DNA of 64,000 nucleotides from Botryllus schlosseri (Eukaryota), in the NCBI GenBank assembly GCA_051294905.1, contig CM119378.1, positions 9,424,001 through 9,488,000 on the forward strand, written 5' to 3'. Of this stretch, positions 4,105-44,719 are shown in pieces. How positions within the stretch are numbered: the stretch's first letter is position 1; each line of letters begins with the position of its first letter. The notes under the pieces are model-generated. The model searched no databases. It worked only from the letters and a program-made list of their open reading frames with translations, and was not told the origin of the DNA. The position numbers and the translations under genes are program-made.

Positions 4105-4354
4105 ATTTTGTTTTTATAGTGCAGCTCCACAACGATTGTTATGCGAGTAGTCCACACTTGTTCGGGTTACTTCCTAGTAAAGCGTTGCCTTTCGTTTGCT
4201 TTAGTATCCTGACGACGTCTGTAAATGGTGATTGGAGCAACAACAGTTGTAGGATTGTTTCTTCTCAAGTTGACAATGACCCTGGGGTCCAGAATTTTAA
4301 TCTACCTTTATCTACTGATAATCTATAAGCTTTAATACAACCAAATACTCCAAT
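4105..4354 (-). other. Putative R/U5 part of the 5' LTR
   Basis: 250 nt between the SL copy and the PBS, with no AUG, two ATTAAA hexamers, and an end of ...AAAACAAAAT abutting the PBS. Boundaries cannot be confirmed without the second LTR. Confidence 0.5.
4330..4354 (-). other. Genome-encoded copy of the stolidobranch ascidian spliced leader
   Basis: ATTGGAGTATTTGGTTGTATTAAAG versus the 24-nt Halocynthia-type SL ATTGGAGTATTTGGTTGTATTAAG (recalled from memory), differing by one inserted A. Not followed by a GT donor. Confidence 0.8.
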
Positions 4355-4365
4355 CAGTTAATTGC

Positions 4366-4427
4366 GCAGACGGAAATGTGGTAACTCCATGCAAAACTTG
4401 GTTAAAATTGGCATACACATCATCCAT
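4366..4427 (-). promoter_or_regulatory. Promoter-like block, copy 1 (upstream of SL/PBS/gag)
   Basis: ~62-bp block duplicated at 5750-5810 (gcagacggaaatg.ggtaactc.atg.aaaact...ttaaa.ttggcatacac.tcat.cat); contains an ETS-like CGGAAAT. Confidence 0.55.
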
Positions 4428-5244
4428 CAATTATAACACAAGGCATGGTTTAACCTATACATCATCATACACAATTAACAAACATTTTCAATACTCCAAG
4501 GTTTGTTTTCGCATATAATTGATGCGACGGCCTTTCCTGCCGTAAATATCAATACATTTCAAATATCAATTCCTATTCATCATAATATTCTTCAGTATAC
4601 TTGCGATTATAATGTTTCAATCAATTATAACATATCAACATTAAGGACGTCATGTCTTCAGTGCAATTAAAATCACTATGATCCTCTTAATCGGACCGCA
4701 TGATACTACCCTTAACTAAGATGCCACTTAATACAGGCATTGCAGATTGTTCAAACAGGTTTTAGTGTTCATTATTTAGTTAATTTAATGGTTTAGTTGT
4801 TCAAGATTTTATAAGATTTTATATTGTTTTTCATTAATTATTTATTTAGCCTATAATAAGGGTTCGCACCGTAAACTTCGGATTTTGTTTCCCTAAAACT
4901 AGGGCTTCAATCCCTAGGGTCCTGCTTAAAAATAAGGGCGTAGCAGTGTATAACGCCTTATATACATACTGTAGGGATGACGAGGCCCCACAGTATTAAA
5001 TTCATTCGCAGTTAGCAAAACAGCAATAATCCGTACAAACTGTAAAACATTTCTGAATATAGGTTGACCAAACCATTCAATAAACCGTGAACGTGACGGA
5101 ATCAATTTTCTGTGCAACAAAATACAATAAAATGACTCTATGCAAGACGCAATAGAGATTCTTGACCATTCTATATTCCGTAGGTCAGTTATAACACTTT
5201 ATATACATACATGAAAACAATAGCATTCCTGGGCTTAATATTTC

Positions 5245-5694
5245 TCATTGAACTAAGACATCTATAGTATCCTCAGGATAAAAGGGTTCCGTAGATTCGG
5301 CTTGTTCCTTCACCCATTCATCCGTGATCAAATTTTCCATAGGATGCATTCGAGCCATATAGTTGAACCACAAAAGTTTAGCCTTTTCATAATTTCCAGA
5401 GGCCATGTCTCTTATCATTTTATGGTTTTCTAGTATTCCTTGGTAGTCAATAACAAGGGGCTTCTCATCAGAAAGAGTTTCTTTAATTCGTTTGAAAAAA
5501 CATTTCAATCCAAGTTTGATATATTTGGGCGGGGTCCTTGACCATTCGTACCATCTATGAGAGGGGGGCATTCTTGCTTCATATCGTTCTTTGAATAACC
5601 AAAAATAAAAGATCAAATCTTGTTCCGCCACATTAGATCCAACTAGTTTGGTGACATCAACATCACCTTTATCATTTACTTCAGCGTTATTCAT
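5245..5694 (-). CDS. Accessory protein, family A (149 aa), unknown function
   Basis: Intact ATG ORF; motif H..I......NYEKAKLLW....RMHP.....DEW shared with three neighbours; closest to 7652-8047. Confidence 0.8.
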   Translation of the reverse strand: MNNAEVNDKGDVDVTKLVGSNVAEQDLIFYFWLFKERYEARMPPSHRWYEWSRTPPKYIKLGLKCFFKRIKETLSDEKPLVIDYQGILENHKMIRDMASGNYEKAKLLWFNYMARMHPMENLITDEWVKEQAESTEPFYPEDTIDVLVQ

Positions 5695-5749
5695 ACTTTT
5701 AATTTTTCTGAAAGCAATTAATCATCCAGTTAAGGTTCTATTTGGTCAT

Positions 5750-5810
5750 GCAGACGGAAATGGGGTAACTCAATGTAAAACTCAATTAAATTGGCATACA
5801 CGTCATACAT
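5750..5810 (-). promoter_or_regulatory. Promoter-like block, copy 2 (upstream of a family A gene)
   Basis: Aligns with 4366-4427; contains CGGAAAT and a CRE-like TGACGT. Confidence 0.55.
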
Positions 5811-6452: not shown

Positions 6453-6908
6453 TTACTTAGCATACATATCAGTCCAGTTTCTTGCCGTTCTTTGATAGCA
6501 ATCATAGTCATCCCTATACAGTCTAGCGCTCTCAACATCCATTGGATCTTCTGGATTAGGGGAAGCCAATAATGACGAAATCGAGACCAATACTTTTCCC
6601 AACGTTAAAGCGGGTGACCATTCATTTGCAAGAATGTCAATACATATGGTACCCTTACGGCTTATATTCGGATGGAAAATCTTGGTTTCAAATTTGATCT
6701 TCGGAGGCTTGAATGGATATTCCGTTGGAAATTCAATTCTAAGAAGAAATGTTCCTTTTTCATATGGTGTTTTTGGTGGTCCTCGCAAAAGTGCTTGCCA
6801 AACATAGATATCCGACTCGTCCAATGGCCCTGCTTGCAAAATTACAGGATTTGTTCGTATTTCTTGATTAATTTTTCGCCGTTCAACGTATAATCTATGT
6901 TTTGCCAT
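6453..6908 (-). CDS. Ubiquitin-conjugating enzyme E2 (UBC4/UBE2D-like), intronless
   Basis: FPTEYPFKPP, HPN motif, and catalytic Cys in FHPNISRKGTICIDIL...WSPAL. The ATG is at 6908; the ORF track start at 6932 is a TTG. Confidence 0.95.
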   Translation of the reverse strand: MAKHRLYVERRKINQEIRTNPVILQAGPLDESDIYVWQALLRGPPKTPYEKGTFLLRIEFPTEYPFKPPKIKFETKIFHPNISRKGTICIDILANEWSPALTLGKVLVSISSLLASPNPEDPMDVESARLYRDDYDCYQRTARNWTDMYAK

Positions 6909-6968
6909 TCGATGCAGACTTATACTATCCAATAAAACTTACACACATAAAAGAAAAGGGGAACATCA

Positions 6969-8047: not shown

Positions 8048-8052
8048 TCTTC

Positions 8053-8637: not shown

Positions 8638-10329
8638 TCAAGCTCTATACACCTTTATCTTTTCCAGTATTGTTTCACCACAAATGTTGCATCTTTCGGT
8701 ATTTGTTGCACATTTTTCACAACTACATAAATGTCCACAAGGTATGAAAGTAATTTCACTTTTGTTTCTCTTGCAATTTTTGCAAAGCACAACCTCTTGT
8801 ATTTCTTTCAAACTTTGCGCGATCTCATCCACCGACATTGTTTCTGCAACTGCTGCTTCTTTCGTTTCTTTGTTGTTGTTTACTTCGTGATTATTTTCAG
8901 ATATACTATCGCCTTGTTGTGTTGTTTTCGTTGGACTGGCGGTAATTGTATTTACTGTCTCTAGTAAATCCTGAATTATATCACCAGTAGAGAAAGGATC
9001 ATTAATCTGTCTATTTATAGTTCCTTCTATTTGATCTCTCGTAAATCCCATGTCTTCCAGTTGCATCCTGTTTATGTATTGTCTAGATAACCTTGGTCGA
9101 TTATGGTTCCTTCGTATCTCCTCTCGTGGTGCATCAAGACATATTGCATTCCTTATCGATGGTCGATTGAGATTGGGATGTTCATCTCTTAGTCGTAAAA
9201 CGAAATCAATACCTTTCATTTGCAAAACATATTCACAACCAGGAAACCACTTTGCATGTTCTGTCCACGGCTCATCATTGTAGTTCCAGTTTTGTAATCC
9301 TCCATTGCAGTAAAAGCATTTCGCCCTGTCCGAATCCCCTAAATAATACATACCCGCTTTAGCCAATTGTTCCGTTGTTGCGAGGATCCTGGGCCATTTT
9401 TCATTAAACGAAGATATTCTTTGCTGTAACGATGTCATATGCAAATTTATCGGGTAAAGGCAAGGGAATCTTTCCACCAACTGGAGTTGTTCTTCTGGCG
9501 ATGGATCCGGAGGTTCTCCCCTATTAGTAGTTAACCTTTCAATTTTTATTTTAAGTTCATTATCTGCCTGATTTCTCTCGGAGTCTGTCAAGGGCATATT
9601 TCCTGCATACTCGTTATTTGCCATTTTGCATTTTGTAAAATGTCTTTTATGTTGTTCAAGGACATTATCAGTGGGTGCCCAATTTCTCAGTACTCCTGAG
9701 CATGAAAAACATTGCGCTCTGTCAAGGTTTCCCAGGTAAAAAAATCCCTGTTTTGCCAATTCCCCTACCAAGTATGGAGTAGGATAGGAAGGCCATTTGT
9801 CAAAGGTTCTTCTTCTCTCTAGTTCACTCCTCAAATTTGCTGATCGCAATGAAGTCTCATGTTCTTGGTCACAAATGTTCGCAAACACGGTTTGTGGTAA
9901 GGGACATTTTTCCTCTTTGATAGTCGGTCTTTGCACATTCCGATTAGTTTGCTGACTTCTTGTAGTAAGGTTAAGGTGGCACCTCATTTGTTCAAAAAGG
10001 AGCCTCCTTAAGTAATTTGAAATAGGCAAGTTATAACCATGTTGTATGGTCACCATGTCACAAGTAGATTTATGCCACTTGTCATCAAAAGGATCATCTC
10101 CAGTGACCCATTTTTCCACAGATACGCCACAGCAGTAACATCTTACTCTATCTTGAAATCCTGTCCAATAGAAACCAGCAGCGGCTAGATAGCTCGGTAT
10201 CACAGGAGTTTCTTTCGAAAAATGTTTGAACGTTGCAAGTCTGTAATACTCAACCCGGTGATCTCCAGGTGGAATATAAACGCAATTATGTCCAGGAGGA
10301 TCACGATCTCTTTTCATCAGAATGCCCAT
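8638..10329 (-). CDS. iap: Inhibitor of apoptosis protein (3 BIR, UBA-like segment, RING), 563 aa, intronless
   Basis: Three BIR repeats (LAAAGFY...C..C...W...D...H...C pattern), LEDMGF UBA-like segment, C-terminal RING CKNC...PCGHLCSCEKC...CNIC ending IKVYRA. Confidence 0.96.
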   Translation of the reverse strand: MGILMKRDRDPPGHNCVYIPPGDHRVEYYRLATFKHFSKETPVIPSYLAAAGFYWTGFQDRVRCYCCGVSVEKWVTGDDPFDDKWHKSTCDMVTIQHGYNLPISNYLRRLLFEQMRCHLNLTTRSQQTNRNVQRPTIKEEKCPLPQTVFANICDQEHETSLRSANLRSELERRRTFDKWPSYPTPYLVGELAKQGFFYLGNLDRAQCFSCSGVLRNWAPTDNVLEQHKRHFTKCKMANNEYAGNMPLTDSERNQADNELKIKIERLTTNRGEPPDPSPEEQLQLVERFPCLYPINLHMTSLQQRISSFNEKWPRILATTEQLAKAGMYYLGDSDRAKCFYCNGGLQNWNYNDEPWTEHAKWFPGCEYVLQMKGIDFVLRLRDEHPNLNRPSIRNAICLDAPREEIRRNHNRPRLSRQYINRMQLEDMGFTRDQIEGTINRQINDPFSTGDIIQDLLETVNTITASPTKTTQQGDSISENNHEVNNNKETKEAAVAETMSVDEIAQSLKEIQEVVLCKNCKRNKSEITFIPCGHLCSCEKCATNTERCNICGETILEKIKVYRA

Positions 10330-10569
10330 AGTTTCAATTCGGTCATTTCTCGGTGTAATTGCTTTCGATGGAACAGGCGTTCAATAATACAGATCAAAAT
10401 GTCTAAATATAACCATACCAATCCAACATTCTAGTAATAATACATAAACATTCTGTTAAAAAAAAATATCATTATATAAGATTTCTCGAGGTTCCAAATT
10501 AGCATTGGTTCGATAAATTCCATGGATTGGGTGTAAAGTCATTATTTAATTGTCAATATGTGACAACAG

Positions 10570-11482: not shown

Positions 11483-12430
11483 TCAATGTTCCAGTGTCCT
11501 AAAATTAGGATCAAGAGCAATTATCTCTAAAAATAGTTGAAACCTTTCCTCCAAGGCCACCCTTCTTTTCCAGAGCCACTCCTGTAAGTAATGAGGAATA
11601 AGTGATCTTGATACCCCATTCAGCCTTCTAATAGCAGCTTTAAAAAAATTCCAAGACACCTCGATCAATTGTGTATTTATGCCTTCTGTAGTGACAAATT
11701 CGCGATCATGATTAACTACTGAATGTTTATAATTCATTCCCAGGCTTTCCAACTTGCGGTAACTGGCAAATGAATCAGTCCATATAGTGGATCCCTCTTT
11801 TACGTGTTTCATAATTATTTCTGATAATACAGAGGTTTTTCTCCCTTCTTCAGGTACCAATTCTGCAAACATTTCTCGCGTTTTCATATCTATTCCAGCC
11901 AAAACCCAGCGTTGGCGTATTATTCTTCCACGATTAAATTTTCTTTTGGCCACAAACGTCTCATCAATTTGAATTACATGTGATTTACCTTGTGATATTC
12001 CCCCTATTAGGGTACCTCTTCTTTCCATTTCCACAGAGCATATCTTACGAAGTTTCTTGGTCCAATTCACCATTGTTCTCTTGCTGACGTGTGCTTCAAA
12101 AGCTATTTGTCGTTGAGATACATCTATGGTCCAAAGATAAATCATCATTACAAGTTGGGTGAGTCTTATTTTACTTCCTTCAAATAGTGATCCTTTCCTT
12201 ATGGACGTGGTAGTCCTGCACTTTGAAACCGGACACCTCCATCTATATCCATCCATAGTTCTTTTGCATTTTTCTTCATTCATTTGTTGTCCACAATTAA
12301 AACATGTTGCCTTTTGAACAAGGAGTTGCCGTGATCGCAGAAACTTTATACATTTTCGTTCACTTGATATTATACCACATCGAGCAAGATTGAATAGATT
12401 TTTTCTTTTTCTGGATTCTTTAGTCTTCAT
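11483..12430 (-). CDS. IS1595/ISXO2-like (Merlin-type) DDE transposase, 315 aa
   Basis: N-terminal Zn ribbon (CFNC...WRCPVSKC), HTH-like region, catalytic QIDET / WTDSFASY / TQLIEVSW, C-terminal YLQEWLWKR. No TIRs seen. Confidence 0.9.
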   Translation of the reverse strand: MKTKESRKRKNLFNLARCGIISSERKCIKFLRSRQLLVQKATCFNCGQQMNEEKCKRTMDGYRWRCPVSKCRTTTSIRKGSLFEGSKIRLTQLVMMIYLWTIDVSQRQIAFEAHVSKRTMVNWTKKLRKICSVEMERRGTLIGGISQGKSHVIQIDETFVAKRKFNRGRIIRQRWVLAGIDMKTREMFAELVPEEGRKTSVLSEIIMKHVKEGSTIWTDSFASYRKLESLGMNYKHSVVNHDREFVTTEGINTQLIEVSWNFFKAAIRRLNGVSRSLIPHYLQEWLWKRRVALEERFQLFLEIIALDPNFRTLEH

Positions 12431-12499
12431 ATTTATTTAAAACTTTATTGTCTTTTCAAAAGTAGTTTTCTGTATATACAAACATTGGAAAGTTAAATT

Positions 12500-19466: not shown

Positions 19467-20041
19467 GGCTACAGTTATACCAGCAAAGAGATGTATTGCT
19501 GTTTTTTGACCCTATATATACCAAGTCTGTGGAAATGTAATAGGTCTATGTGTCATAAATTTTCCAAGAATGCCACAGGAATCTTTCTTTTTTCTTAGCG
19601 AGTTCACACCACAATACGCAGTGATCATGCTATTCGTCTTATTTTGATTCATCACCCTTTTTTACATGCGCCACACTAGGATATAACCATGATATCCATT
19701 ATCCTAAATCAATCTCGATGTTCATCTTTACTGCTACATTATCCGTATTTTATATGAGGCCTCGCTCAAAGTGAGAACTTACTATCAATTATAATCAGGT
19801 GAATTAAAATTGTAGGTGATTGTACCAATTTTGTGTCCTGTTTCTTCATCTAGCACAGGGGTCTCAAACTCAAACGTGCTTGCGGGCCATTTTCCTAGTT
19901 GGGACGACGCCGCGGGCCGCAGCATTTATAGGGGTATTCTATGTCTTTCCAAGTAGGCCTTATTTGGCGGGAATGAATTTTTCTATTGAGAGTGAGTCGA
20001 TCCAGCAGACTGACAGTAACCACACATCGCCAAAATATGAT

Positions 20042-20317: not shown

Positions 20318-20399
20318 GGCCAAATATCTTCAAATATAGGAGCAGAAAAAAATATAAATATAATATAAATATATTAATGAATGTGTCCTAGTGATTGAA

Positions 20400-23211: not shown

Positions 23212-23245
<34 letters not shown>

Positions 23246-27900: not shown

Positions 27901-29152
27901 AACAGCTACAGTATCAAAACGCGTCGACAGCAGGCTGATACTATAAACCTTAAAATTCCAGATCTACTATCATTATTTACTTCAAATGATTGTATTTTCA
28001 AACGTCCTTAACAGGGATTATCTTGGCGTGTCGTGATTCTATTTCGTAGTATACTTTACGCCTATACCCGTATGTCATGCTATCCCATGCAATCCTAATC
28101 ATTCTAACCGTTGGACCCCAGCGTTTATATTGAATTAGTACCGAGTGTTTAGAATTTATTTTGTATAGTAAGAATATCAATGTCGCGAGTGATTATAATA
28201 TAAGTCTCATATCATAGCTATAAGTACCACGTTGATTCTCTCTCTCTCTTTATAGAAAGATGAGCATCAGTTTCGTTTTATATTATCGAAATTTCCCTAG
28301 GTGCCATGACAAGTAATAGTCCACACATTGTAATAATAGCTTTCCACTTTTAGTAACATTTGGTATAACTGATACCGTTTCCACGCGACAATATTAGATT
28401 GGCAGTCTGTTCCGTGATGACCCAAGTTATATTCAGGTCTATTATCTTGACATACCAAAACTTGTTGAGTGTCAACTAGTGCTGGAACAAAAGCACGACC
28501 TTCGATACCCCAGTCATTACCAGTTAACACACATTCTGACTCGAGTCAAGTCCAAGTCAATCGACTCCCAATGCGACCCGAGTCAAACCAAGTCACTCGT
28601 TCCCTATAAGCGAATCGCTCCAGGTCAAACCACTCGAAGAAGTCGACCCGAGTCACCTCAATACTGGTGTCAACCTATATATGGATAAGCTGACTACCAG
28701 CACTCAACTCCCTTAACACCTTACAGTCTGGTATGGAGTCAACTGATTTTTCCATTCCTGCGCTCCGCGTTTTATCCAGTTTTGAGCGGAAGAACGTTAA
28801 CGCGCATGCACCTCCCATCACCACGAGCAATTTGCTATTTTCGTAAAGTGGGGTTTTGGCATCCTTCCGAACATTCATCAAGCAAATTTTTGTCGCTATC
28901 CTTTGTACTCCGGCATGATTAAGCCCCCCATTACAGACAAATTTCACCATTTTGCTGCAGTTAAATATTTCCTGTTCGTCAATTACCCACTGTAGCGCTT
29001 CCTTTCCCACCATTAGTTGTGGCCTTATTGTGCAAGAGTTTTGCAATGGCGTGATCAACCCCTCAATTGGGGTCGTATTTTGCCGTTTCTACTAAATTAA
29101 ATTTTCTTGTTCGTCAATATGCCATCGCAACATGTACAAAAATTACGCCATC

Positions 29153-31935: not shown

Positions 31936-32039
31936 AACTTATTAAAGATATTTTTTAAACATCTTCCATGAGTTCAAAAGATGTCCTTCAATGAAGTGCA
32001 AAATATATACATTTGTCGACAGAAATGGATATATATAAG

Positions 32040-32170: not shown

Positions 32171-33618
32171 GATATTTTTTGTACAATTCGACCCTGTGTG
32201 ACCCTGAACCCTGGTAGGCTAAACCTGCTATATGCTGCACTTCACACATGAACGAATACGAATCATCAATTTTACAAATCATGTATGGCTTTTTGTTCTG
32301 TATTGTACCAGTTCAAAATACAAAAAAAAAATGCACTGGACTAGACCTCGACGAAGACAGTTCAAAATACAAAAAAAATGCACTTGACTAGACCTCGACA
32401 AAAAATTGGAATAAAAATGGATGAAGAACGAAGGTAAAATAATAGTCCCTGACATAACATACGTTAGCAAGAAATAGGCAGCAAGAGGTAGGCCTTTTTG
32501 TTCAGAAGGAAAACTAATTGCCAATTTTAAAAATCAGCATGTATATGGCTTTTTGTTCTGTATGAAATCAGTACAAAACACTAAAAAATACATGGATGAA
32601 GAAAATACGTTAGCAAGAATTGGGCCTTGATACAGAACTGTGCAATCACTTCAGCCAATACTTCTGCCTCCTCGATAACAGTCTTGCTCCTGTTTTCTCC
32701 TTTATCGTCGTCCTATAACAGAAATGAATTGATTACTTTGATTGATTAGCAGTAGAGCAATAGTCATTATATGTGTTTGTTCGTGAGTAATGTGGGACGG
32801 TCATGTCAAGTCACATTCATCCAAGGATTCCGATCCGTCTTTAGGAAGTCACGACGAACTTGGTGGAGTGCGACAGCCAAGTCAAACTTTACCATCTACT
32901 TCGACAAAATTGTCGATTCAACTCTGCGCGCCAAATTTGGCTTAATTCCAACATATAGAAGCTGATAAACCAGGGGTTCTCAGCCATCTATTGGCCGTGC
33001 CCCATTTTCGGGTTTGAAAATGTTCTTGAGACCAATCTCTTACCACAGAGTAGAGTCGTAGTCCTTTTCAATGTGTGGTAATCGCCACCACCAATTTGCA
33101 TATTTCTCTATTATAAGCACCTTTTTATCTTACTAATCATATTTAAATGTAGACCTACAGGGACAAAAAATCGCGCAAAGCACGACAAAAATCTACTTCA
33201 ACAAACGACAAACAAAGTAATTTTGGGTTCAGTCGAGCTCCCCTAATTGGGCGTTTGAAGATGGCCCTGGAAGATCGTATAACTCATCGTTATCGCTCTG
33301 GGCCAGCTTCAAACATTTCTTTGGTGAACGGGATACTATAGCTAGCTGTAAAATGTACCTAATATATATACCAGCGAAGTTTCAAATCCCTAATTTTGTA
33401 TCTCAATTTGACATCTACACGTTGGAATTGAGCCATATTTGCCATGCATCTTGTTCGCCACCGAAATAGCCGACCCAATGCTCCCTCTAATTTTTGTCAA
33501 GTCTGCACACACTCACCAACTCACAGTAGTGCATAACGACTAAAAAAATGACATCACTTCAGATTTGTTCTGTGCGCAGAGACCAACTAAGCACTGCGCA
33601 ATTGCGCACATGCGTAGT

Positions 33619-34271
33619 AGGGCTCTTCAAAAATGACTTTTTTTCTCAAATCGTACTGGCTACTTGATAAAATTGTTAGGTTACCTAATTTAAGCCTACA
33701 CACAAAATTTGGTTCAATTCCAGCCAGTAACCGCTTTGCTACAGGAGAAGTAAGTTTCTATTTATTATGTAAAAATAAATAATAAAAAATTTGAAAATTT
33801 TCTGTTCACCCCATGAAAGTGTTGGGCTGTCTATAGAAACGATGCTCACCAAATTTGGTTCAATTCAAACCAGTGGAAGCGGAGTTATTGCTGTCGAAAA
33901 ATTTGGATTTGAATAAAATAGTATTTACGGTGACCGATTCTTTGTTCATTTATTAAAGTTGTGCTCACCGTAAATACTATTTTATTCAAATGAGAATTTT
34001 CCGACGGCAATAACTCCGCTTCCACTGGTTGGAGTTGAACCAAATTTAGCGAGGGTCGTTTCTATAGACAGACCAACACCTTCATGGGGTGAACAGAAAT
34101 TTTTTTATTATTTATTTTTACATAATAAATAGAATCTTACTTCTCCTGTAGCAAAGCGGTTACTGGCTGGAATTGAACCAAATTTTGTGTGTAGGCTTAA
34201 ATTGGGTAAAATAACAATTTTATCAAGTACCCAGTACGATTTGAGAAAAAAAGTCATTTTTGAAGAGCCCT
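33619..34271. mobile_element. Foldback/palindromic MITE, ~650 bp
   Basis: Arms of ~310 bp are near-perfect reverse complements (agggctcttcaaaaatgac...gtcatttttgaagagccct). Confidence 0.85.
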
Positions 34272-37200
34272 AGTGCGCAGTGCAGCTTAGAGTGAACATG
34301 GGTCAGGCAATAGTAATCTGAGCCCCCCACGCGGTACGAATACGACCAGTTGAGGATGAACTTGCTTCCCGTGTAGAAATGTGAATTGAAAGGAGTTTGA
34401 AATGAGTGATGGATTATTGGCAAAAAAGTTTTGGAGACATTGGTTCCACCGCTAAAGCTGAGCAAGTGTAAAGAGATGATCAAAAATTTATGTAAGCAAG
34501 ACCAACAATTTTGACAAAATTAAATGACTATAACTTTTTTTTTAAATTACATCACGTCAAAGTTTGGGAACCACTGGTATAGTGTTCTGAAGATGAATGG
34601 TAGCGGCCCTTGAGGTAGCAACGATTCACTTACTGTCAAATGATATGATAAAGAACGCAGCTGTCACACAGACGTCAGATTCATAAACAAAATTACCTTG
34701 CAAGCTCCAAGAACAGTTAGAAATCGTCCCACTTTGGTTGTAATTGTTGTACTCTCGGCCGTAGGATTAGCCACTTTACATGCTCCTTCAAAGATAATAT
34801 AAGTAGATCAGGGGCTGCATTACAAAACAATGCGGCAAATCGGAATCTCCGCCAGTGGTAACAATCTTTCTCGAATGTGATCACCCCATAGTGTCAAAAT
34901 TGGCATTTCAAAACATTCCCGACTCAACACCGAGTTGCGCAATTAACGCACTTGCTTGTGATTTTGCCATGTCGGCAATGTCAGTAGAAAATGATTTCAA
35001 ATGAGGGCTTATAAGGCTGTGTGGTCAGCAACGATTTGCAATTTAGCTGTGATCTTTCACAAGAAGGGAAAGCAAAATACTTTAACTCTGTAAAAATGCT
35101 CCCGAAGGCATTGTTATCGAGGGTTTTGTAATCTCGACTGTAATATCAGTAACAACTTACGTGTAATAGTCTTGTAAAGATTAAAATTTTGAAAACTTCT
35201 TTTTTGTCCATTTTTGCTTCTTTGACCTTTTAGGCTGAACAATTGCCACACATCTTTTACAGCTATGCTTGTCATGATATTTCTGACCGTTGAAGCCAAT
35301 TGTTCACCGTAAAGTCCTTTCAGAGCAGATACCTGTAGTACAAAATACAAATGGCTCTGCCTTACGATAGTGGTGTGTACCAGAATGAAAAATAACTAGA
35401 TCAGCCCAAAAATAAGTAGGGTTTCGATATTTTTCGAATTCACTAATATAGCATTAATTCATCATGGTAAAGTACATGCAAAAATGACGATTATACCCCC
35501 AAACCCCCCTCTGGCTACGCGCCTGCATAAACATCAAATAACTTGATGGAACGTTGATCTTGACGAGAGGTTAGATCAGGGTGGGCAACTTCTCCAGTCG
35601 GCAGGCCGGATATAGGAAAATTAAGTACTTGGGCACCGGATTGCTGAATCGATGCATTATTCGTCCATTTATCCACAAGGAATATATCGTATTTAATGAA
35701 TGTCTTTCAACGACAGCAATGTCACTTCGAAGCCATTTCTCGCCGATAATGGCGAATACAATGTGGATTTGAGAATAACATTGTCATGTAGGCAATCTCG
35801 ATACAGAATTCATGCGGCCTGCGTCCTCTACCAAATTCGAAAAGTGGCCTGCAACCCATTTTGAGTTGGCGCCCCTGGCATAAGCGGTGCCTTACAAAAA
35901 CCTAGAAGTGTGCCGTGCTCCAAGTCGGCGGTTACGGAATCAAAAATAGGAAATATCAGCCTGCTGACCATTGTAGTCGACAAAAATCATGATTACTACA
36001 GACCACATTAGGTTTGATTGCATCGTTAATGCCGATAATGCAAGTCTTCTCGCTTCAACGAACTTACGCATAAGCTCCACTCTCGCAACGCTGCGCATAC
36101 ACGTATAATATAATAACATAGTCACTAAAATTTGACGTAGTAAGGAATTAGTGGGGAATCTCGGCAAACTGGGGCGGGGCATTATCATGTAGGACAGAGA
36201 ACTGCCGGCGGGCCGGACAAAATCACTTCGCGGGCTGTATGCTGCCTGCCCCTGGGTTAGATACTCCACCTAAGTTTGCTCTAATCGACAAAATCATACC
36301 AGTTCAGATTTCTTGCAATCGCCGTCAGTCAAGTTCTTTTCCAGTTGTTCCAGCTGAGATACGGTTTGACAGGGGTTTTCAATAAGATCTTCAGCAAGAT
36401 TGGGGCTGTTGTACTGTGTTTATTTTTTTTTCGTTGATGATGTGACCTTTAATTAGATCCATCATCTGTTTCATCTGCTTGGAGCTGAGGTCCATCATCT
36501 GGTTCATCTGCAACTTGATGTCTTTACGCATCAGAGAAATATACAGAGTGGTCATTGTGTGCAGATGTTGGAGTTGATGAAGAACATGGAGGAGCTTAAA
36601 AAATTATTTGAATTCAAGAAAACTGGATTGATCATATGCGATAAACTTACCATTACTTTGTGATAGGCCTTGTTGTTGACAGTCAGAATTTTGCAGTTCA
36701 ACATTGCTTACAAATGAAGGATCGTCTGGAAAATAGAGCGACTCTATTGCTTAAATTCGAGAATGAATCAAAGTGTTGGGAGCTTACTGCATTAGTTGAT
36801 TCCCTGCAACTGGCCGCTACATTCAATGTTGGGATCATGCTGTTCTTGAACACTCTCCTCACTTGATGATGGCAAACTTGCATTTGAAGCATCATTAACA
36901 AGAGCACTCTTGCTTGTCACACTTTCATCGCCAGAATCAGGAGGTGACCGCACTCTTGGAGTTGGTGTAGGCATGCCTTGTGTCTGAATACTTGGATTAC
37001 GTTTTTTCTTTGAAGGAACAGCATCATCTACAAAGTATGAAAGTTATACATATATCACTTCTGCGTATAACATATTAGGCAGAATAACAGTGTACGCTAT
37101 ATACCTTGATTATCAGATGACATGGACTTGTAAAAAATCTTTTGGCGGCTGACGTTTTCGGTTAGGGCAGGCTATTATTGTCTGCAACTGCCCTCATATC

Positions 37201-37419
37201 ACGAAAGGCCTTGACCCATAAATCTAAAACAGATGGATAATATAGATGGTAAGTTTCCAGATTTATCAAACTACTGGATTTGTAAACAGCGCAACTAGAT
37301 CTAGAATTACTCAAATTTGAAAACTCGCACAAACTTGAAAAAACGATATTGTATCGCACACGCAAACATAGAACTGCTAGGTAATGAACCACTGTACGCA
37401 AGTAACGGTATATATAGCT

Positions 37420-37812
37420 TAGTGGTTCCCAACCTTTTTCGGTGTCAGGGCCAAATTTAGAATTTCAGAGTATATTGTTGGGGCCGCACGAATTCGTGAC
37501 TGCTTTAGATCAATAAAAAGTTCACAAAATAGAGTAAAATCGAGGAGAACTGCTGCTGGGTTTTGCCTCAGGGGGCTCAGCGTATTCAACCGTGAGTCAC
37601 GTGTTGTACATCTATTCGTAGATTAGTTATCAATACCTATATACAGTAGTTAGCACTCTACTCAGAACTTTTCTGCAATCCTAATTAACAACTCCAAGCT
37701 AAGCAAGAGAATTTTATAAATATAAATTTTATTTTATATCATAAATCGATTTCTTTAAATTTTTGTGGGGGACGCAAGACGGCTAGCTCAAGGCCGCGGT
37801 TGGGAATCACTG
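37420..37812. mobile_element. hAT-type MITE
   Basis: Ends tagtggttcccaacc / ggttgggaatcactg; 8-bp TSD atatagct / gtatagct. Confidence 0.75.
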
Positions 37813-39041
37813 GTATAGCTACATGCTACAGTCTCATTTTTGTCATGATTCAAGCCATCCCAACACTGGTACTAATGAGTAACGGTAAACCTTCACAAAT
37901 TATGAGTTGACTTACCGGATGAGCATTTGATACGTATTTTGTACAGAGTCCAATTGCCCGTGTCATATTTCACTTGATGATGATGAAGCGACCCGTCCCG
38001 CCAAATCGGCGGTTCTAGCTCGCTTGAACCGTAGCCACTCTTTATGGTACTGCCTACGTCTGTGCTTCCCCGTCTTATTTTATATCTGGGCATTACGGTA
38101 CCACGTTGTAGCTGAGCTCCCACTACACTATTATAGACAAAAGTACAAGAACATTCGATCACAATGAATGATTTTAGCGACCAACATCTGATGATATTAT
38201 ATAATCCAGCACTGTCACAATAGCTTATAAGATATTCGCAAAAGTGCAAACCAAGTTCTATACTTTGTGACATTATACCATACACTATACCTATGATTCG
38301 TATCAAGCATATATAAATTACCATCTACAGCTCAGTTTTCAGTAATCCTCTTAAGGAATATGGTTGTTTGAGCCTTAATTTACCACGATCAATTCCAGAA
38401 CGCAACTAAACCTAACATACGACTGCGTAGCTGTAAGCCTCCATTACTCCATTACGAGAGCGCTTTATCTGTCAGTATTTCGCGCCGAAACTTATGTGAA
38501 CTCGCAAGGGAGAAATGGCCTCTCGTTTACACTCCGGATCAGAAGCCGGAGTCGTAGCAGGATTTCAGCCGGACTGGATGCGGATTCTGAATTAATTTCG
38601 ACAGTCGGATTTTGGCAACATTCTTAATTATAATCTTAAATACGATATCATTATTTTAGCAGAAGTTTTTTGGACGCAGAACCGGAAATTCTCCAGCCGG
38701 ATTCTGTGGACTTTCAAATTTCCTTCCAAAATTTGGGAACCGACCAATTCCAATCAAATACAACCCAACCACCGAAAGCAGCGGAGGTGGCGGAGCGCGA
38801 GGATGCGGGCTAATATGACATTTAATTTTAGTCTGCAAAATTGCAAGAAAGAGCGTGACACTAGGTGGAACATACGGTAGTGACACAGGTGATTAATCGC
38901 CCCATGAGAGTAAAAGTTCAATAAAATCTACTGTACATTTATAAACACCACTCTACCATAATAGGAAGCAATAATCGAATTTGATATTCCTAACAAATAT
39001 ATTTTCAGCATTCGACAAAATTTGGCCAAGAAAAGTTGTGG

Positions 39042-39585
39042 TTCAGCACAAGGTATGCACATAGCAATTTACAACGTAGCTACGTTGCAAATTGCTATGG
39101 TATGCACAGGATATGATTTGGACTTGACTGGACAAGAACAAGATATATTTAAGCCGTGCTTCAGCACAAGGTATGGACAAGATATGATTTGGACTTGACT
39201 GGACAAGAACAAGATATATTTAAGCCGTGCTTCAGCACAAGGTATGGACAAGATATGATTTGGACTTGACTGGACAAGAACAAGATATATTGATGTCGTG
39301 CTTCAGCACACAAGGTATGGACAAGATATGATTCAGACTTGACTGGACAAGAAAAAGATATAGGTAATTCGTGCTTCAGCACAAGGTATGGACAAGATAC
39401 GATTTGGACTTGACTGGACAAGAACAAGATATATTTAAGTCGTGCTTCAGCACAAGGTTTGCACAAAGATATGATTTGAACATGACTGGAGATGAAAAAG
39501 ATATATTTAAGTCGTGCTTCAGCACAAAGCATGCACAAGATATGATTTGAACCTGGCTGGACAAGAAAAAGATATCCTGACAGGT
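39042..39585. repeat. ~71-bp minisatellite, ~7 copies, directly after the stop codon of the secreted SU-like gene
   Basis: gtgcttcagc recurs at 39156, 39227, 39298, 39371, 39442 and 39514. Confidence 0.9.
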
Positions 39586-40767
39586 TCAAAAGACATCTAG
39601 TGTTTGCTGGGCATATAACACTTCCTTAAAGGCCAATGCCGTCTTTAAATTTCCTATTGAATTTCGACAAACCTTTTGATTTTTTTTACGTTCACATTCT
39701 ATGCTGCCTTGCAACATAGTCGGAAAATTTCTCTTCCCCATTATCCGTTGAGTATCATTATTCAGATGTTCGCGGAGGGCGTAAATCCTCAATCTAAACC
39801 AAGTATGACCATCAAAGTTTGCTGGCCTCTCCCTGGGGCCCGTCTCATTTCGAGCCTTCAACCACACGATGTCGTGATGTAATCTGGGTAATTTGACTCC
39901 CGCTGGCCATTGACTGTAGGAATAAGTTTCTTGCATTCTCGTCCCTAATCCTCTTATGCTATTATCTATTTCCATGACCACAAAGTCTCTGGACAGTATA
40001 TTTACTGCCAGATCATCTGTATAAAATGAGCATCCTATGCATTGCATCTGGTTGTCTTCTCCGTGCACACATACGTTAAATTCGCCTTTATTGACTCTCC
40101 ATCCCGCGATTTCTTCGAAACGCTGCTGACACCTTGCTGTCACTGTTGCATATTGTGCCAAGATATTCATCACTGATAACTTGTACACCGTCAACAGTTG
40201 ATGTATAGTAACTTGTGGAGTAGCATTAGGAGATATCATCCGAAGGATCGGACCTGGCACAGCCATAGTGCCATGTTCTTCCCTTCCTACCACATACTTC
40301 CATGTATGTACTAAGCCAAAGTTATTCTTTCGACGATATGTTGTGGTTCTGGTAAAGGCTGCCAAAGTAATATCGGGAGATATTCTTGATAGTTTCCGAT
40401 TGCACCCGCACTCTCTTTCGTATTGTCTAACATTGTTCCAATACCTCTTGTCAGACCCCGAGGGTGCAAATAACTTGTACAATTGATCTTGGCTAGCTCG
40501 TGTTGGACCAAATTTGGGCGTCTCTTTGTATATTGGAAAATTATTTTCCGTTTCACCTATTGGCCAACTCTCGTTCAATTTGAATAGTCGATTAAGGCGG
40601 ATGTATCTGAGACCTTGATACCGGAACGTTGTCCATCCTGTAAGATTAAATGTTAACCTCACACTCATAGCAGACAGGGGCAATAATTGGCCATGAGTTT
40701 GAAGATATCCTCGGTGTAGTGTTAAGGCTACTGCCAGCACAATCCATAATTTAAGGTAACGATTCAT
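39586..40767 (-). CDS. Secreted paralog of the Env surface subunit (393 aa)
   Basis: Signal peptide, no TM. RYWNNVRQYERECGCNRKLSRISPDIT matches Env RYWTSVQDFERTCLCQRRLGQITPNIS, and KLSVMNILAQYATVTARCQQ matches KLIMIRLFESYSAVEASCLQ. Confidence 0.85.
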   Translation of the reverse strand: MNRYLKLWIVLAVALTLHRGYLQTHGQLLPLSAMSVRLTFNLTGWTTFRYQGLRYIRLNRLFKLNESWPIGETENNFPIYKETPKFGPTRASQDQLYKLFAPSGSDKRYWNNVRQYERECGCNRKLSRISPDITLAAFTRTTTYRRKNNFGLVHTWKYVVGREEHGTMAVPGPILRMISPNATPQVTIHQLLTVYKLSVMNILAQYATVTARCQQRFEEIAGWRVNKGEFNVCVHGEDNQMQCIGCSFYTDDLAVNILSRDFVVMEIDNSIRGLGTRMQETYSYSQWPAGVKLPRLHHDIVWLKARNETGPRERPANFDGHTWFRLRIYALREHLNNDTQRIMGKRNFPTMLQGSIECERKKNQKVCRNSIGNLKTALAFKEVLYAQQTLDVF

Positions 40768-40854
40768 ATTATTATAAATTAGTTAGTATATCTGTGGACT
40801 TATGAAAAATTTTTAATTAATAAAAGTAAAATCCTTTGAGTACATATGCGTGCA

Positions 40855-43371
40855 CTACATTCTTGTCGATTTGGCTGTTTTAACGGGGGTCGATACCGAT
40901 GATATGTGCATTGTCAACTGAGTATTCGTGTTTCGCCGTTGTACCTCAGTTTTTAACTTAGGACAGCAAAGACTGCTATAACGACAGCCACAAAACAAGA
41001 CGATCCCGGCCCCCAATATCAAAATTACTGGAATTAGAACAGACCCCAGGCCGGAAAAAATTCCGCTCACTCCCTTATTGAATATTCCTCCGACCGCACC
41101 TAATCCATCTTGTAGAAGATCTCCTGTGCTATCTCCTACTGATTTTATCAAGCTTCCTACACCGTGTGTCATGTCTTCTATCGTTTGGCCCAAGTTATTC
41201 ATAAATTCTTCTCCTCCAACAAATTCGAAAGGCTTAATTGTAATATTCTCATATCGCCAATCAGAAATATTCATGTACACACTCTTATTTAGATCTTTTC
41301 TCCAAACTTGTAAACCCAAATCCACACTCTGTTGGGCTTGATCTAGACTGATTCGGTTAGCACGTAGCTCTACCCCAATGTCATTCGTCTCATTGATGTA
41401 AGCGTCTCTATAGGCTATTAATTGCTGAGCGTGTTCTTTTATCCGCAGCGTTCCTTGTCGGATTTTTGTGAGATATACTTTGCTGGAGTCGAATATTAAC
41501 TTGCCAGTTAAATTAGCCAACTCGTCCAAAACCAATCGATCAAGGGCCAGTTCAGCTTCGCTCATTTCCTTATAGTTTTGAAAAGAGGTCAGGGATGCTG
41601 TGGCTTGTCGTACTATCATTTGTCGGTTTCTTTCTATGTACTTTTCCATTAGTACAAGTCGTTTATTTGTTAACGTTGTCCTCATTTCCATGGTAGCGAT
41701 CGTTTGATCCAGTTTCTGTTGTTGGGCTATTTGCAGAAGAGAGAGTTCGTTAATCTTTCTCCCTAGTGCAGTGGACCTCTGCGTGGCCTGTATCATTCTA
41801 TTATTGATTTGTCGGCTAAGATCCAATGTTTCTTCATGTAACTGGGATGAAACTGTCGCAACGACGGCGATCGCTGATATCGCAGCAAAAACGAGACATA
41901 TCAGTCCTGACAGGAACCTTTTACGCCTTCTACGCGTACCCCGTGGGGCGGTATTACTTGATACCAATTCACCTTTAATTTCTATTGGTCCCCCTGGGAA
42001 GCGTGGTCGGTTTAGCTCCGGATCAAAATGAACATGGTCCCAAAAGGCTGCCTTCAAAATGCGTCCTCCTACAGGGTCGCGGCACAAATCCTGGTTATGT
42101 GATATTCTATTTTTACATGCTTCATCCGATGCAGTAAGAGAGGGGAAGAATTTCCACATAGGCCTGGGAAAAGGTACCCATGTTGATGTAGACGCCTTAA
42201 ACCTAGTCGGCGCACCATCAAAAAGGTTATTCCACCTCATGCCCTGATTGCCACGATTAGCATACACACTGTGATCCAAATTTGGAAAAGACGGTTGTAT
42301 CCATTTTACTCTGGGAGGAAAATTTGTCGTTGGTAGATCACCCCATATAGTGGTATTCATTCCTGGCCAGAAATTGCACGAATGGGCTATTACACCACCA
42401 TCAGGCCAGAAGTGCTCAAACCAGTACTGATTAATCCATCCCCCCTGGGCCCGGCATGGAATGAACTTATTGCGCATATACGGCCATGTACTTATTGTAG
42501 TCATTACTATTTCTTGGATGATTATATCTGCCTTATTTGGTTCCAGAGCAGAAATCACTCCTCTAAAATTACACCTTGTACAGATTCCTTTTCTGACCCC
42601 TTTTACCCTCCAAGAGTGGTATTGTTGCCAAAAAACACTATGGGAGGCATAATCTTTATCCACTAGATGCCAGCATTGTGTAAAACTATTGCTACTGGCA
42701 TTATACTTATTTAATTCACTTAATTTTTCTTTGTCCCCGTCTCTCATTGGCTCTTGAAGACATGAGGCTTCAACAGCTGAATAACTTTCGAATAGTCGTA
42801 TCATAATCAATTTAAATTTGGTTAGAGCAAACATGGAGTAATTCCTGCCAAGGTCATGATACCAGTAATAGTCCCCACTCCAGAACCAGCGAATCCTATA
42901 ATACCCTATTGGACGTATGAACATGTTTGTTTGTTTAAGAACATCATAGGAAATATTGGGCGTGATTTGGCCCAGGCGCCGTTGACAGAGACAGGTGCGT
43001 TCAAAATCTTGTACACTTGTCCAATATCTTCCATGTGGAAACGCCATTTGTTGTAATGAAAAACGCTCAGCTACTACGTAACCAAATGACTTGCTGTAAA
43101 ATAGTTCAGGCCGTCTATATACATGTCGCTCCGCCGTTTTGTTGAAAATGCTCATCAAGTGATAGTCCTCCCATTGTGTATCATTTAGAGTGATCCATTC
43201 TTCAGGCAGGGGTCCCCGTAGTTCCCCTAGCGTCCCCTGAGTGAAAGACCGTGCCCTACTTGTTACAGGATCTGCAAGTCCGTGCATGCCTTTCGCCGCC
43301 GTATGCAGCACCAAATCAGACGTACAAATGATACCAACAAGGATAGACAGAGAATAAGGAAGGATGTCCAT
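40855..43371 (-). CDS. env: Envelope glycoprotein, class I fusion type (838 aa from the Kozak ATG at 43371)
   Basis: Signal peptide, Cys/Trp-rich surface subunit with many sequons, furin site RRRRKR (41934-41917) followed by fusion peptide FLSGLICLVFAAISAIAVVA, heptad-repeat helices, Gly-rich membrane-proximal helix, TM and a Cys-containing tail. Confidence 0.88.
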   Translation of the reverse strand: MDILPYSLSILVGIICTSDLVLHTAAKGMHGLADPVTSRARSFTQGTLGELRGPLPEEWITLNDTQWEDYHLMSIFNKTAERHVYRRPELFYSKSFGYVVAERFSLQQMAFPHGRYWTSVQDFERTCLCQRRLGQITPNISYDVLKQTNMFIRPIGYYRIRWFWSGDYYWYHDLGRNYSMFALTKFKLIMIRLFESYSAVEASCLQEPMRDGDKEKLSELNKYNASSNSFTQCWHLVDKDYASHSVFWQQYHSWRVKGVRKGICTRCNFRGVISALEPNKADIIIQEIVMTTISTWPYMRNKFIPCRAQGGWINQYWFEHFWPDGGVIAHSCNFWPGMNTTIWGDLPTTNFPPRVKWIQPSFPNLDHSVYANRGNQGMRWNNLFDGAPTRFKASTSTWVPFPRPMWKFFPSLTASDEACKNRISHNQDLCRDPVGGRILKAAFWDHVHFDPELNRPRFPGGPIEIKGELVSSNTAPRGTRRRRKRFLSGLICLVFAAISAIAVVATVSSQLHEETLDLSRQINNRMIQATQRSTALGRKINELSLLQIAQQQKLDQTIATMEMRTTLTNKRLVLMEKYIERNRQMIVRQATASLTSFQNYKEMSEAELALDRLVLDELANLTGKLIFDSSKVYLTKIRQGTLRIKEHAQQLIAYRDAYINETNDIGVELRANRISLDQAQQSVDLGLQVWRKDLNKSVYMNISDWRYENITIKPFEFVGGEEFMNNLGQTIEDMTHGVGSLIKSVGDSTGDLLQDGLGAVGGIFNKGVSGIFSGLGSVLIPVILILGAGIVLFCGCRYSSLCCPKLKTEVQRRNTNTQLTMHISSVSTPVKTAKSTRM

Positions 43372-43403
43372 GGTACAGACAGTGGTGGTTCTCGCCACGT
43401 CAT
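43263..43403 (-). CDS. 46-aa single-pass membrane uORF overlapping the env start in another frame (not in the ORF track)
   Basis: MTWREPPLSVPWTSFLILCLSLLVSFVRLIWCCIRRRKACTDLQIL; weak-context AUG (gtttATGa) lies upstream of the strong-context env AUG (accATGg). Confidence 0.5.
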   Translation of the reverse strand: MTWREPPLSVPWTSFLILCLSLLVSFVRLIWCCIRRRKACTDLQIL

Positions 43404-43441
43404 AAACTAAATATAATCGCGCACTAGACCTAGACTACCGT

Positions 43442-43465
43442 CTGTAAAAACACAAAACAACAGAT
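43442..43465 (-). promoter_or_regulatory. Strong 3' splice acceptor upstream of uORF/env
   Basis: tgttgttttgtgtttttacAG, ~40 nt before the uORF AUG. Confidence 0.6.
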
Positions 43466-43500
43466 GTCGTCATTTCCGTCCTGGAACCTTAAAACGGGGT

Positions 43501-44427
43501 TTACAAATGTGGTAATACAGGGGACCCCTCAAATTTGTCAAAATTATACCGTGGATCATTGTGTATGGTGCGCAGGAGTGCCAAGAATCGGTCAGTCTTT
43601 TGATGTTGACGTTTCCACAAAAACTCCCCTACGTAATCGGCTAAAAGGTGACGTGCTAAACCACGAGACCTATGTAAGTGATATTTAAGCTGTCCCCAGG
43701 CCCCCTCGATTTCATTAGTACAAAAAGCTGTCCGGGGATCTTTAAACCATCGGGAGTGGTCCACTACGCCGTGTATATAACCCTTCCCCCAGCTCTCTAT
43801 GCCCTTGTAGGAAGGATAAGCATCGGTTAGAATTGTGGACCCCTCTGTCACATTTTCTACTATGAGTTTTCGAAATACTTCAGCAGTTCTGTCAGAAGTT
43901 ATTTCAATGAACATTTCTCCGGTGGCTTTGTCTATTCCTCCAAACCCCCAAATGGCTTTAACAGCTGGTCCTTTACCAGAGGCAGCCCGGCGCTTGGCTA
44001 AGTGCGTTTCATCAATAATTACGCAACCGCCTTCCTTTCCCAAACGTCGCTTGTTCCTGTGAAATTCGGCCGTACAAAGCTTTCGCAATTTGCCGCACCA
44101 GGTAACCGTTGAACGTGGGCTAATCTCAGCTTCATGCGAAATTTGGGTTTGCAACGCGTCATGGGACCAAAAGTAGAACAATATTAATAATTTGGGAAGT
44201 TCTACCTTGCTTCCCGCGAATATCGAGTGTTTCCGTATAGTCGCCGTAGTGTCACAGGGGTTGCATCGCCACCTAAATCCATCATCGCCTGTTGACGTAA
44301 TTTCCTCTTTCATTATTTTTTTACATCGCTTGCATTTCATCCTTCGCACCAACAACCCGTGATTTCTCAGAAATATCACACAATCCCGTGTGTTTAGCAA
44401 TGCACCCGATTCGACCAAACTCAACAC
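43501..44427 (-). CDS. Second IS1595/ISXO2-like (Merlin-type) DDE transposase (~308 aa)
   Basis: CKRC...WRCNPC, IIDETHL / LTDAYPSY / TNEIEGAW, YVGEFLWKR. GTG start; similarity to 11483-12430 extends upstream (DTRKRT versus ESRKRK), so the true start is uncertain. No TIRs seen. Confidence 0.88.
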   Translation of the reverse strand: MLSLVESGALLNTRDCVIFLRNHGLLVRRMKCKRCKKIMKEEITSTGDDGFRWRCNPCDTTATIRKHSIFAGSKVELPKLLILFYFWSHDALQTQISHEAEISPRSTVTWCGKLRKLCTAEFHRNKRRLGKEGGCVIIDETHLAKRRAASGKGPAVKAIWGFGGIDKATGEMFIEITSDRTAEVFRKLIVENVTEGSTILTDAYPSYKGIESWGKGYIHGVVDHSRWFKDPRTAFCTNEIEGAWGQLKYHLHRSRGLARHLLADYVGEFLWKRQHQKTDRFLALLRTIHNDPRYNFDKFEGSPVLPHL

Positions 44428-44719
44428 ATTGTATGTTCTTTTCCGCGTATCTGCGCAAGTAAATAATACGACATGTGGCGTCGATCAACTCCCCATCGTC
44501 TTTGGCGGATCAAACCCCCCTTTTTCTTGGCGTTTCATGTGTACTGACTCTCTCCTATTTTAATCCCGTGTTATTCCTATGACAGGGTTATTTTTTTCAC
44601 TTGTTCCTTACCAGGCCTAATGATTTTTTCACCCTCATTTCAATGTACATGCAAAACACTTACTATCCCACTACACACCCATTTTATGGTGCAACAACTA
44701 TTGCCGCCTAGACCTCCGG

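Follow-up and report, generated by a model that had tools for sequence, protein, structure and literature searches.

Gene content and organization of the locus

The analysed window, a 64-kb stretch of the Botryllus schlosseri genome (contig CM119378.1), contains part of a giant, cargo-rich and env-bearing long terminal repeat (LTR) retroelement, which is a variant not previously described; no description of it was found in the literature searched, most subscription journals and Repbase being outside the coverage of that search. All coordinates are positions in this window, and the genes of the element, whose functions are predicted throughout, are read on the minus strand from 44.5 kb downward (Table 1). 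In this direction, the outer part consists of a polypurine tract (PPT), the dinucleotides TT and TG, the transposase gene DDE2, env, a paralogue of the env surface (SU) region and a host-type interval. It is followed by an open reading frame (ORF) for a mucin-like membrane protein, another host-type interval, a broken-gene zone and a dense array of intronless genes, which include an inhibitor of apoptosis (IAP), a ubiquitin-conjugating enzyme (E2), a leucine-rich repeat (LRR) protein, a second DDE transposase (DDE1) and three paralogue families. The inner end comprises 0.8 kb of non-coding DNA, CA-AAAT, a primer binding site (PBS), a small membrane ORF, gag, a frameshift site and the protease region. 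An initial annotation had placed env and accessory genes upstream of the PBS and a PPT at the far end, and every feature it named was recovered at its minus-strand coordinates, except for an "SL" before the PBS.

All 22 ORFs of at least 145 aa within positions 1-44528 lie on the minus strand. The annotated coding fraction is 0.65 at 4.1-19.5 kb, 0.90 at 29.6-32.2 kb and 0.94 at 39.6-44.5 kb, and zero at 19.5-29.6 and 32.2-39.6 kb. The 40-kb interval from PBS to PPT is thus not uniformly viral: 17.4 kb of it are without intact genes and hold host-type repeats, and its native length was therefore probably nearer 25-30 kb. On a conservative reading, the env-bearing retroelement has a minimum extent of roughly 35 kb or more. 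Neither a tRNA gene nor an Rfam match was found in the window.

Table 1. Features of the retroelement locus, listed in minus-strand order
Feature	Position	Strand	Remarks
Dispersed repeat	44740..44906	.	inverted copy at 28121-28290, 68% over a 108-nt core; read as host-type
Purine-rich stretch	44529..44740	-	stops in all three frames
PPT	44515..44528	-	followed by TT (44514-13) and TG (44512-44511)
DDE2, IS1595/Merlin-type transposase ORF	43501..44484	-	acidic triad present
env ORF, 838 aa from first Met	40855..43434	-	11 N-glycosylation sequons
SU paralogue	39586..40782	-	22% over 169 aa (E 3.5e-8); no membrane segment
71-bp tandem array, 6.7 copies	39028..39575	.	interrupted by a 40-bp palindrome
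Host-type interval	32200..39000	.	foldback element, ends of miniature inverted-repeat transposable elements (MITEs), exon-like pieces with AG/GT borders
Mucin-like ORF, 781 codons, Thr/Ser-rich	29593..31938	-	C-terminal membrane segment
Host-type interval	25000..28700	.	several fragments of a repeat also at 56.3-57.2 kb
Broken-gene zone	19520..25000	-	virus-like strand bias, no long ORF
ORFs of outer half of array	18945-19511, 17284-17805, 16238-17110, 14247-14873, 12500-13015	-	
LRR protein	13111-14163	-	LRR_8 E 5.1e-76
DDE1, second IS1595/Merlin-type transposase	11483..12436	-	E 3.1e-17, above NCBIfam cut-off
IAP, intronless	8638..10380	-	three BIR (E 3.5e-59) and RING (E 3.7e-9)
Four-member orphan paralogue family	5245-5721, 5861-6322, 7652-8113, 8053-8529	-	
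Further array ORFs	6969-7493; short last ORF 4926-5198	-	
E2, intronless	6453..6938	-	UQ_con E 5.3e-47
Non-coding segment ending in CA	4109..4925	-	candidate promoter, R and U5
CA and AAAT	4110-4109 and 4108-4105	-	4 nt separate CA from PBS
PBS	4087..4104	-	17/18 nt identical to a published tRNA-Ile PBS (available part of PMC1084362)
89-aa ORF	3787..4056	-	one membrane segment; between PBS and gag
gag, 946 aa from first Met	938..3826	-	capsid-fold domain, CCHC knuckle
Slippery site A AAA AAC	959-953	-	gag/pol overlap; hairpin of -17.8 kcal/mol from 3 nt downstream
pol start, -1 frame	3..1007	-	aspartic protease DTG motif; continues beyond window

Polypurine tract and left end

The final 13 nt of the tract are identical to the PPT of murine leukaemia virus (MuLV or MLV; 13/13), whereas the PPT of human immunodeficiency virus (HIV) differs at two of 14 positions (sequences from PMC3407194), so that the tract, initially termed lentivirus-like, is of the MuLV type; a second copy, as in the central plus 3' duplication of the 15-nt PPT of HIV, was not found in the window. 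Searched with at most one mismatch, the 14-mer has one match in the window compared to 0.02 expected (2/100 shuffles), and a looser rule (at least 13 purines ending in 5 G, 0-2 nt, then TG) gave one site compared to 0.053 expected (300 resamplings). Near copies outside coding DNA were absent at up to three mismatches. The initial annotation had cautioned that 14 nt may match by chance, but with a chance of 0.02-0.05 and no other such tract in 64 kb the match is probably not fortuitous.

A distance of 31 nt separates the tract from the DDE2 ORF, and about 200 nt separate it from the dispersed repeat further out; the left junction of the element is probably situated in the purine-rich stretch between tract and repeat. 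A generic scan of the minus strand for a PPT plus TG yielded six sites in total, the others being at 49.0 and 49.9 kb (host flank), at 35.5 kb, inside DDE1 and at 19663. None was located within 7 kb of the PBS, and none of the seven purine runs of at least 8 nt in 4105-7000 has a TG inside 3 nt.

The observation that no pol lies upstream of the PPT was upheld as far as tested: reverse transcriptase (RT), RNase H and integrase had no match among 102 stop-to-stop ORFs of at least 68 aa from the gene-poor intervals and the flank, a search that heavily broken remains would escape. Likewise, no copy of gag or protease was detected above 3.9 kb when 34 retrieved proteins were compared with the window. 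A resemblance by eye to an integrase C-terminus at 44.62-44.82 kb was rejected: it had no Pfam match in any of four readings and no relevant PDB match, and the stretch partly aligns with the dispersed repeat.

Primer binding site, gag and the start of pol

The core of the locus is an LTR retroelement (Ortervirales), as indicated by a capsid fold, a CCHC motif together with an aspartic protease, and a tRNA PBS. The Gag segment was modelled with 16 relatives (predicted local distance difference test, pLDDT, 82.6), and many of the best 30 VIA rows for this model were retroelement capsids (top Z 6.9, root-mean-square deviation 3.0, 88 aligned), the named matches being MOAP1, foamy virus, Ty1, copia, PEG10 and MLV (Z 6.0-6.9). 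As each Z is middling and a Foldseek search of the model against PDB gave no match at E 0.001, it is the concordance among rows that identifies the capsid fold. The best named viral match was the Gag of an amphibian endogenous retrovirus (ERV; probability 0.98, TM 0.40, E 0.058). The zf-CCHC domain of gag was detected with E 5e-4 and 20.5 bits compared to a Pfam cut-off of 20.8. Among 1.84 billion representatives, 29 Gag relatives were retrieved at E 0.001, the closest at 56%; the only named one, LOC120346589 of the ascidian Styela clava, was also the sole match of the protease region among 537 candidates, which makes an ascidian the probable host. The pol start had no match to a protease domain in Pfam or PDB, and its DTG motif is kept in the Styela relative P0008, which by eye stops near the RT start. 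P0008 is annotated as a gag-protease fusion spanning the position of the slippery site. Downstream of the protease, window positions 3-440 encode a low-complexity acidic stretch of pol with a 59-bp internal repeat (1-59 and 136-194); a long insert, dissimilar in sequence, likewise precedes the RT start in P0008.

The non-coding segment ahead of the PBS, which would hold R and U5, contains TATA-like motifs at 4823 and 4813 and ATTAAA at 4336 and 4301. A 70-bp motif at 4366-4435, about 250 nt before the PBS, recurs with 83% similarity at 5750-5818 between two array genes; it is the sole repeat touching this segment and may be a promoter element. The SL of the initial annotation was not confirmed. 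The Ciona spliced leader (sequence and operons from the available part of PMC1488885) had two matches at up to three mismatches compared to 1.9 expected, neither of them near the PBS, and the region 4345-4060, considered as a candidate stem-loop, was not more stably folded than its shuffled versions (z -0.93).

The env block

The predicted env product has the segments of a fusion protein in class I-like order: an N-terminal hydrophobic, signal-like segment, a furin site ending at 483, a fusion-peptide-like segment from 486 and a membrane segment from 778. This order is conserved in its one relative (61%). No match was obtained in Pfam, NCBIfam or PDB, and a single-sequence structure model was unusable (pLDDT 36). 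Look-alikes in the Atlas (coronavirus spike, Fusion_gly and haemagglutinin, 0.88-0.90) had low recognition and serve as a lead only. The adjoining DDE2 matched Pfam DDE_Tnp_IS1595 (E 8.6e-10) and an NCBIfam model (E 2.4e-17, below the NCBIfam cut-off). An in-frame start codon is missing ahead of its homologous N-terminus; the gene is either broken at this point or receives its initial codons from a spliced exon. The palindrome within the neighbouring 71-bp array (39060-39099, 40 bp) is near-perfect.

Accessory genes

A Pfam scan of 28 ORFs identified the E2, IAP, LRR and both DDE products, and an all-against-all comparison of 267 ORFs revealed three paralogue families in the array as well as the SU paralogue adjoining env. 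DDE1, packed between array genes, shares 39% identity with DDE2; both proteins have a zinc-finger N-terminus and the D-D-E residues. Since scans for terminal inverted repeats (TIRs) found no inverted pair flanked by a target site duplication (TSD) around either gene, the DDE genes are read as captured. The orphan family has just four relatives, three of which are 70-78% identical to three different paralogues of the window; this suggests that the array is conserved in a sister lineage. Its best Atlas score was 0.76, which gave no lead. With regard to a possible operon resolved by trans-splicing, an ad hoc splice-acceptor score ahead of 18 genes was 8.06 compared to 6.03 for shuffles, above 300/300 sets, with the shuffle mean lowered by sets without AG; the opposite strand scored about 7.6. 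The gap in the array at 14900-16240 is 1.3 kb long, AT-rich and ends in a 12-nt purine run at 14983 without a TG after it, and the mucin-like ORF is flanked by 24-bp and 49-bp tandem arrays.

A possible giant gene-bearing LTR

In retroviruses, U3 begins at a TG located 2 nt after the PPT, and U5 ends with the CA ahead of the PBS. Read in these terms, the env and accessory genes of the element would be part of a giant U3, with the PPT retained at the left end of this copy. This is the preferred interpretation, although our confidence in it is evenly balanced; confidence in all readings was assigned by judgement, without computation. tRNA-Ile bound to the PBS would prime minus-strand DNA, and the MuLV-type PPT at 44.5 kb would serve as the primer for plus-strand DNA. 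The stretch from TG 44512 to CA 4109 would be one LTR, with a U3 grown to hold env, the SU paralogue, the mucin-like gene, two DDE genes and the accessory array, and with promoter, R and U5 in its last few hundred bases; its native size would be about 25-30 kb, reaching 40 kb in this copy with host-type DNA. With a genomic RNA of the order R-U5-PBS-gag-pol-PPT-U3 genes-R, env would follow pol in RNA and precede gag in DNA alone. The IAP, E2 and LRR genes would keep an infected cell alive and blunt its defences.

Since a normal 5' LTR has no PPT ahead of it, this copy would have needed an extra event, most plausibly an extension of its left end about 200 nt beyond the PPT or the insertion of a one-LTR circle. 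In retroviruses, left ends can be extended by plus-strand priming upstream of the PPT and subsequent repair joining to host DNA. Such priming may have formed the left end here and would explain a junction so near the tract, which random opening of a circle does not. This possibility was missing from the initial annotation, as was a central PPT combined with a nested insertion of the same family. The anomaly that had led to its three options (tandem, permuted circle and gene-bearing U3) is real, but these options do not exclude one another: a 3' PPT at this position would by definition entail a gene-bearing U3, and an extended left end, a circle or a tandem would still be needed.

Several observations favour a giant U3. 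The tract matches MuLV exactly, occurs once in the window, has a TG 2 nt behind it and is positioned at the edge of the gene block. It is unlike a central PPT inside pol because no pol was found upstream and stops occur in all frames beside it, and it may represent a functional 3' PPT. The TTTG at one end is the reverse complement of the CAAA at the other. All blocks appear to belong to one replicon: DDE paralogues occur in both outer blocks, the 70-bp motif is common to the array and the PBS-proximal segment, and the closest relatives show similar divergence (gag 56%, env 61%, orphan family 70-78%).

Other observations weigh against it. The prior is low because the largest LTRs in a review measure 1.9-6.5 kb (available part of PMC6431247). 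No long direct repeat or LTR pair was found in the 64-kb window, nor were a second LTR copy, a TSD or an integrase seen within it. An RNA intermediate would not easily keep 17.4 kb of gene-free DNA with MITEs and exon-like pieces. The terminal inverted repeat is just 4 nt long, and a 7-nt scan of both ends gave one off-register match. The looser motif rule was post hoc, set after the motif had been seen, and the weight given to the position of the tract at the block edge was likewise judged after the fact. A weaker alternative PPT candidate exists in the 9-nt purine run at 19663-19655, with TG directly after it, which lies at the outer edge of the array, 150 nt outside its first intact ORF. 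The strand control is thin, as 3/3 long ORFs at 44.5-64 kb are also on the minus strand. Linkage of env and array to gag was seen only at this locus; for the genomic context of relatives, a bacterial genome scan gave none among 92 pattern matches.

The main alternative, though a rather unlikely one, is an element with short LTRs and a giant interior, arranged as LTR-gag-pol-PPT (central)-DDE-env-accessory genes-PPT-LTR. The locus would then be a pol-less 3' half with a second copy, nested or in tandem, whose 5' LTR is the segment at 4.1-4.9 kb. Lentiviruses and foamy viruses have central PPTs at the end of pol, a feature that a genome of 40 kb could well use. The prior for such an arrangement is higher than for a giant U3, extra ORFs past pol or env are the usual pattern in the available part of PMC6431247, and the 0.8-kb non-coding segment is comparable in length to the LTRs of ascidian errantiviruses (about 0.27-0.79 kb in the 6/9 rows giving coordinates in PMC13524379). 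As a 5' LTR needs no PPT, a nested insertion would also account for the lack of one at 4.9 kb. A tandem, or a one-LTR circle, sharing a short LTR should instead have a PPT-TG at a distance of about 0.3-1 kb from the PBS on its upstream side; 0/7 purine runs qualify, which argues against this option. More coincidences are required for the short-LTR arrangement: it involves two independent events as well as a deletion with its end point some 200 nt from the tract, upstream of which the sequence is non-coding, and the NN-TG after the tract would be fortuitous as well.

It is improbable that the locus is a patchwork in which fragments of one family (env, mucin and array plus gag-pol) were split by host DNA or misassembled, with the tract derived from an unrelated old element or from chance. 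This scenario would fit the host-type intervals, 3.7 and 6.8 kb long, at whose borders no TIR plus TSD was found, and the occurrence of broken paralogues next to intact ORFs at 20-25 kb, but the three blocks are same-stranded and nearly intact, a DDE paralogue occurs in both outer blocks, and the tract is only 31 nt from the first ORF. Finally, an origin of the gene block as a DNA transposon of the Merlin type or a piece of DNA virus, moved by its own DDE and adjoining an unrelated gag-pol element, is very improbable despite two DDE ORFs with an acidic triad and an inverted pair at 28.1-28.3 and 44.7-44.9 kb enclosing mucin, env and DDE2, because the pair is only 68% alike though the ORFs are intact, no TSD was seen by eye at its outer ends, no TSD-flanked pair surrounds the DDE genes and no DNA-virus core gene was found.

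If the giant U3 is taken further, completing two such LTRs would need strand displacement over tens of kb, so that the element may persist largely as a one-LTR circle, comparable to an enveloped animal pararetrovirus. A chordate retrovirus-like lineage with an LTR of 25-40 kb carrying env and about 20 genes, perhaps persisting in this form and perhaps using captured IS1595/Merlin enzymes for insertion, is a speculative extension that we consider doubtful.

Comparison with known elements

The env-bearing Ty3/gypsy elements ("errantiviruses") of ascidians and Oikopleura Tor (PMC13524379; PMC4402516) resemble this element in their tunicate hosts, CCHC gag, tRNA PBS and furin-cleaved env. According to the available part of PMC13524379, F-type env was found in a wider errantivirus-like group, 9/9 ascidian rows have a gB-type env in loci of 13-15 kb, and Styela clava is marked "No intact copies". 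These ascidian rows have LTRs below 0.8 kb and env after gag or pol, whereas env precedes the PBS here, and none of those available shows an Ile PBS 12-mer like that of this element. In Oikopleura Tor, env is situated after pol (PMC4402516). Whether its LTR is giant or short, the element exceeds the known env-bearing ascidian elements in size.

Lokiorterviruses (Loki) and Odin retrotransposons are defined by RT and a dual RNase H (PMC9040795). Loki was described from vertebrates and has an env resembling Mononegavirales fusion proteins, comparable to the class I-like anatomy found here, for which the Fusion_gly look-alike is a lead only; Odin was described from anemones and lacks env, and the available part of PMC9040795 does not mention a large accessory array. 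The retrovirus-like side of the Botryllus element is represented by the G-tract PPT and the amphibian ERV Gag as best named viral match of its capsid; the PPT of Ty3 is without a G tract (PMC3407194). Burro/GYPSM1 of planarians (PMC6431247) is similar in its size of >30 kb, cargo of BIR and ubiquitin-related domains, env homology and tandem repeats, but its cargo is mostly in one polyprotein and its env between gag and pol, compared to about 20 separate ORFs, including two DDE genes, before the PBS here. Burro (>30 kb) and LTRs of up to 6.5 kb are the size records in the available part of that review (PMC6431247). The available text of bioRxiv 10.1101/2024.12.15.628590 contains no occurrence of "retro".

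Coding sequence downstream of the plus-strand primer is a feature shared with retroviral U3 ORFs and caulimoviruses. The former (nef of HIV, sag of mouse mammary tumour virus, bel2 of foamy viruses) are single and shorter than 1.5 kb, and to our knowledge they never encode env; caulimoviruses have circular DNA with genes between PPT and PBS, no env and plant hosts. With Merlin/IS1595 transposases, the element shares Pfam and NCBIfam matches and thus the IS1595-type DDE domain. Merlin transposons have TIRs and an 8-9 bp TSD around the transposase, whereas the genes here are intronless and packed in a retroelement, and neither TIRs nor a TSD were found.

Even on the conservative reading, an env-bearing retroelement of about 35 kb or more would be present in the closest invertebrate relatives of vertebrates and would test the size limit for reverse-transcribed genomes. 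Its cargo (IAP, E2, LRR, mucin-like protein, soluble SU paralogue, orphan families and two transposases) is more like that of a large DNA virus, and its RT may help to bridge the distance from Odin/Loki elements to retroviruses. If U3 truly holds env and the array, the rule that LTRs are short regulatory repeats would be overturned, which would also account for the lack of intact copies from pipelines seeking gag-pol-env between short LTRs.

Host-type intervals and flank

A strand-aware 4-mer score, whose host model was trained on the flank and hence favours it, classified 20-25 kb as virus-like and 25-28 and 32-39 kb as host-like. The broken-gene zone contains two paralogous segments (22713-23058 and 24460-24806, 61% alike) and, at 23.2-23.7 kb, a poly(A) run and a host repeat. 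Repeats common to the flank occur at 18.3, 23.6, 25.1-25.7, 28.5 and 37.4 kb, and none were found in 4.1-18 kb; a MITE lies at about 18.0-18.7 kb between array genes. Since all these repeats avoid intact ORFs, the host-type DNA may have been gained while the ORFs were under selection, which separate fragments would fit, too. A TIR plus TSD was absent from the borders of three host-type inserts.

In the larger interval, the foldback element (33606-34283) has arms that are 88-96% complementary, and the exon-like pieces on the minus strand at 32600-37030, one of them BEN/DUF4806-like by eye and none with a Pfam match above the cut-off, may derive from a spliced gene, of host or transposon origin, that lies within the element. 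The flank at 45700-60600 is a nest of MITE-like repeats, one block of which is repeated at 51-52 and 59.3-60.6 kb. It includes a 341-codon ORF (48085-49110) with no Pfam or NCBIfam match, which by eye resembles the 3' end of a CR1/L2-like long interspersed nuclear element.

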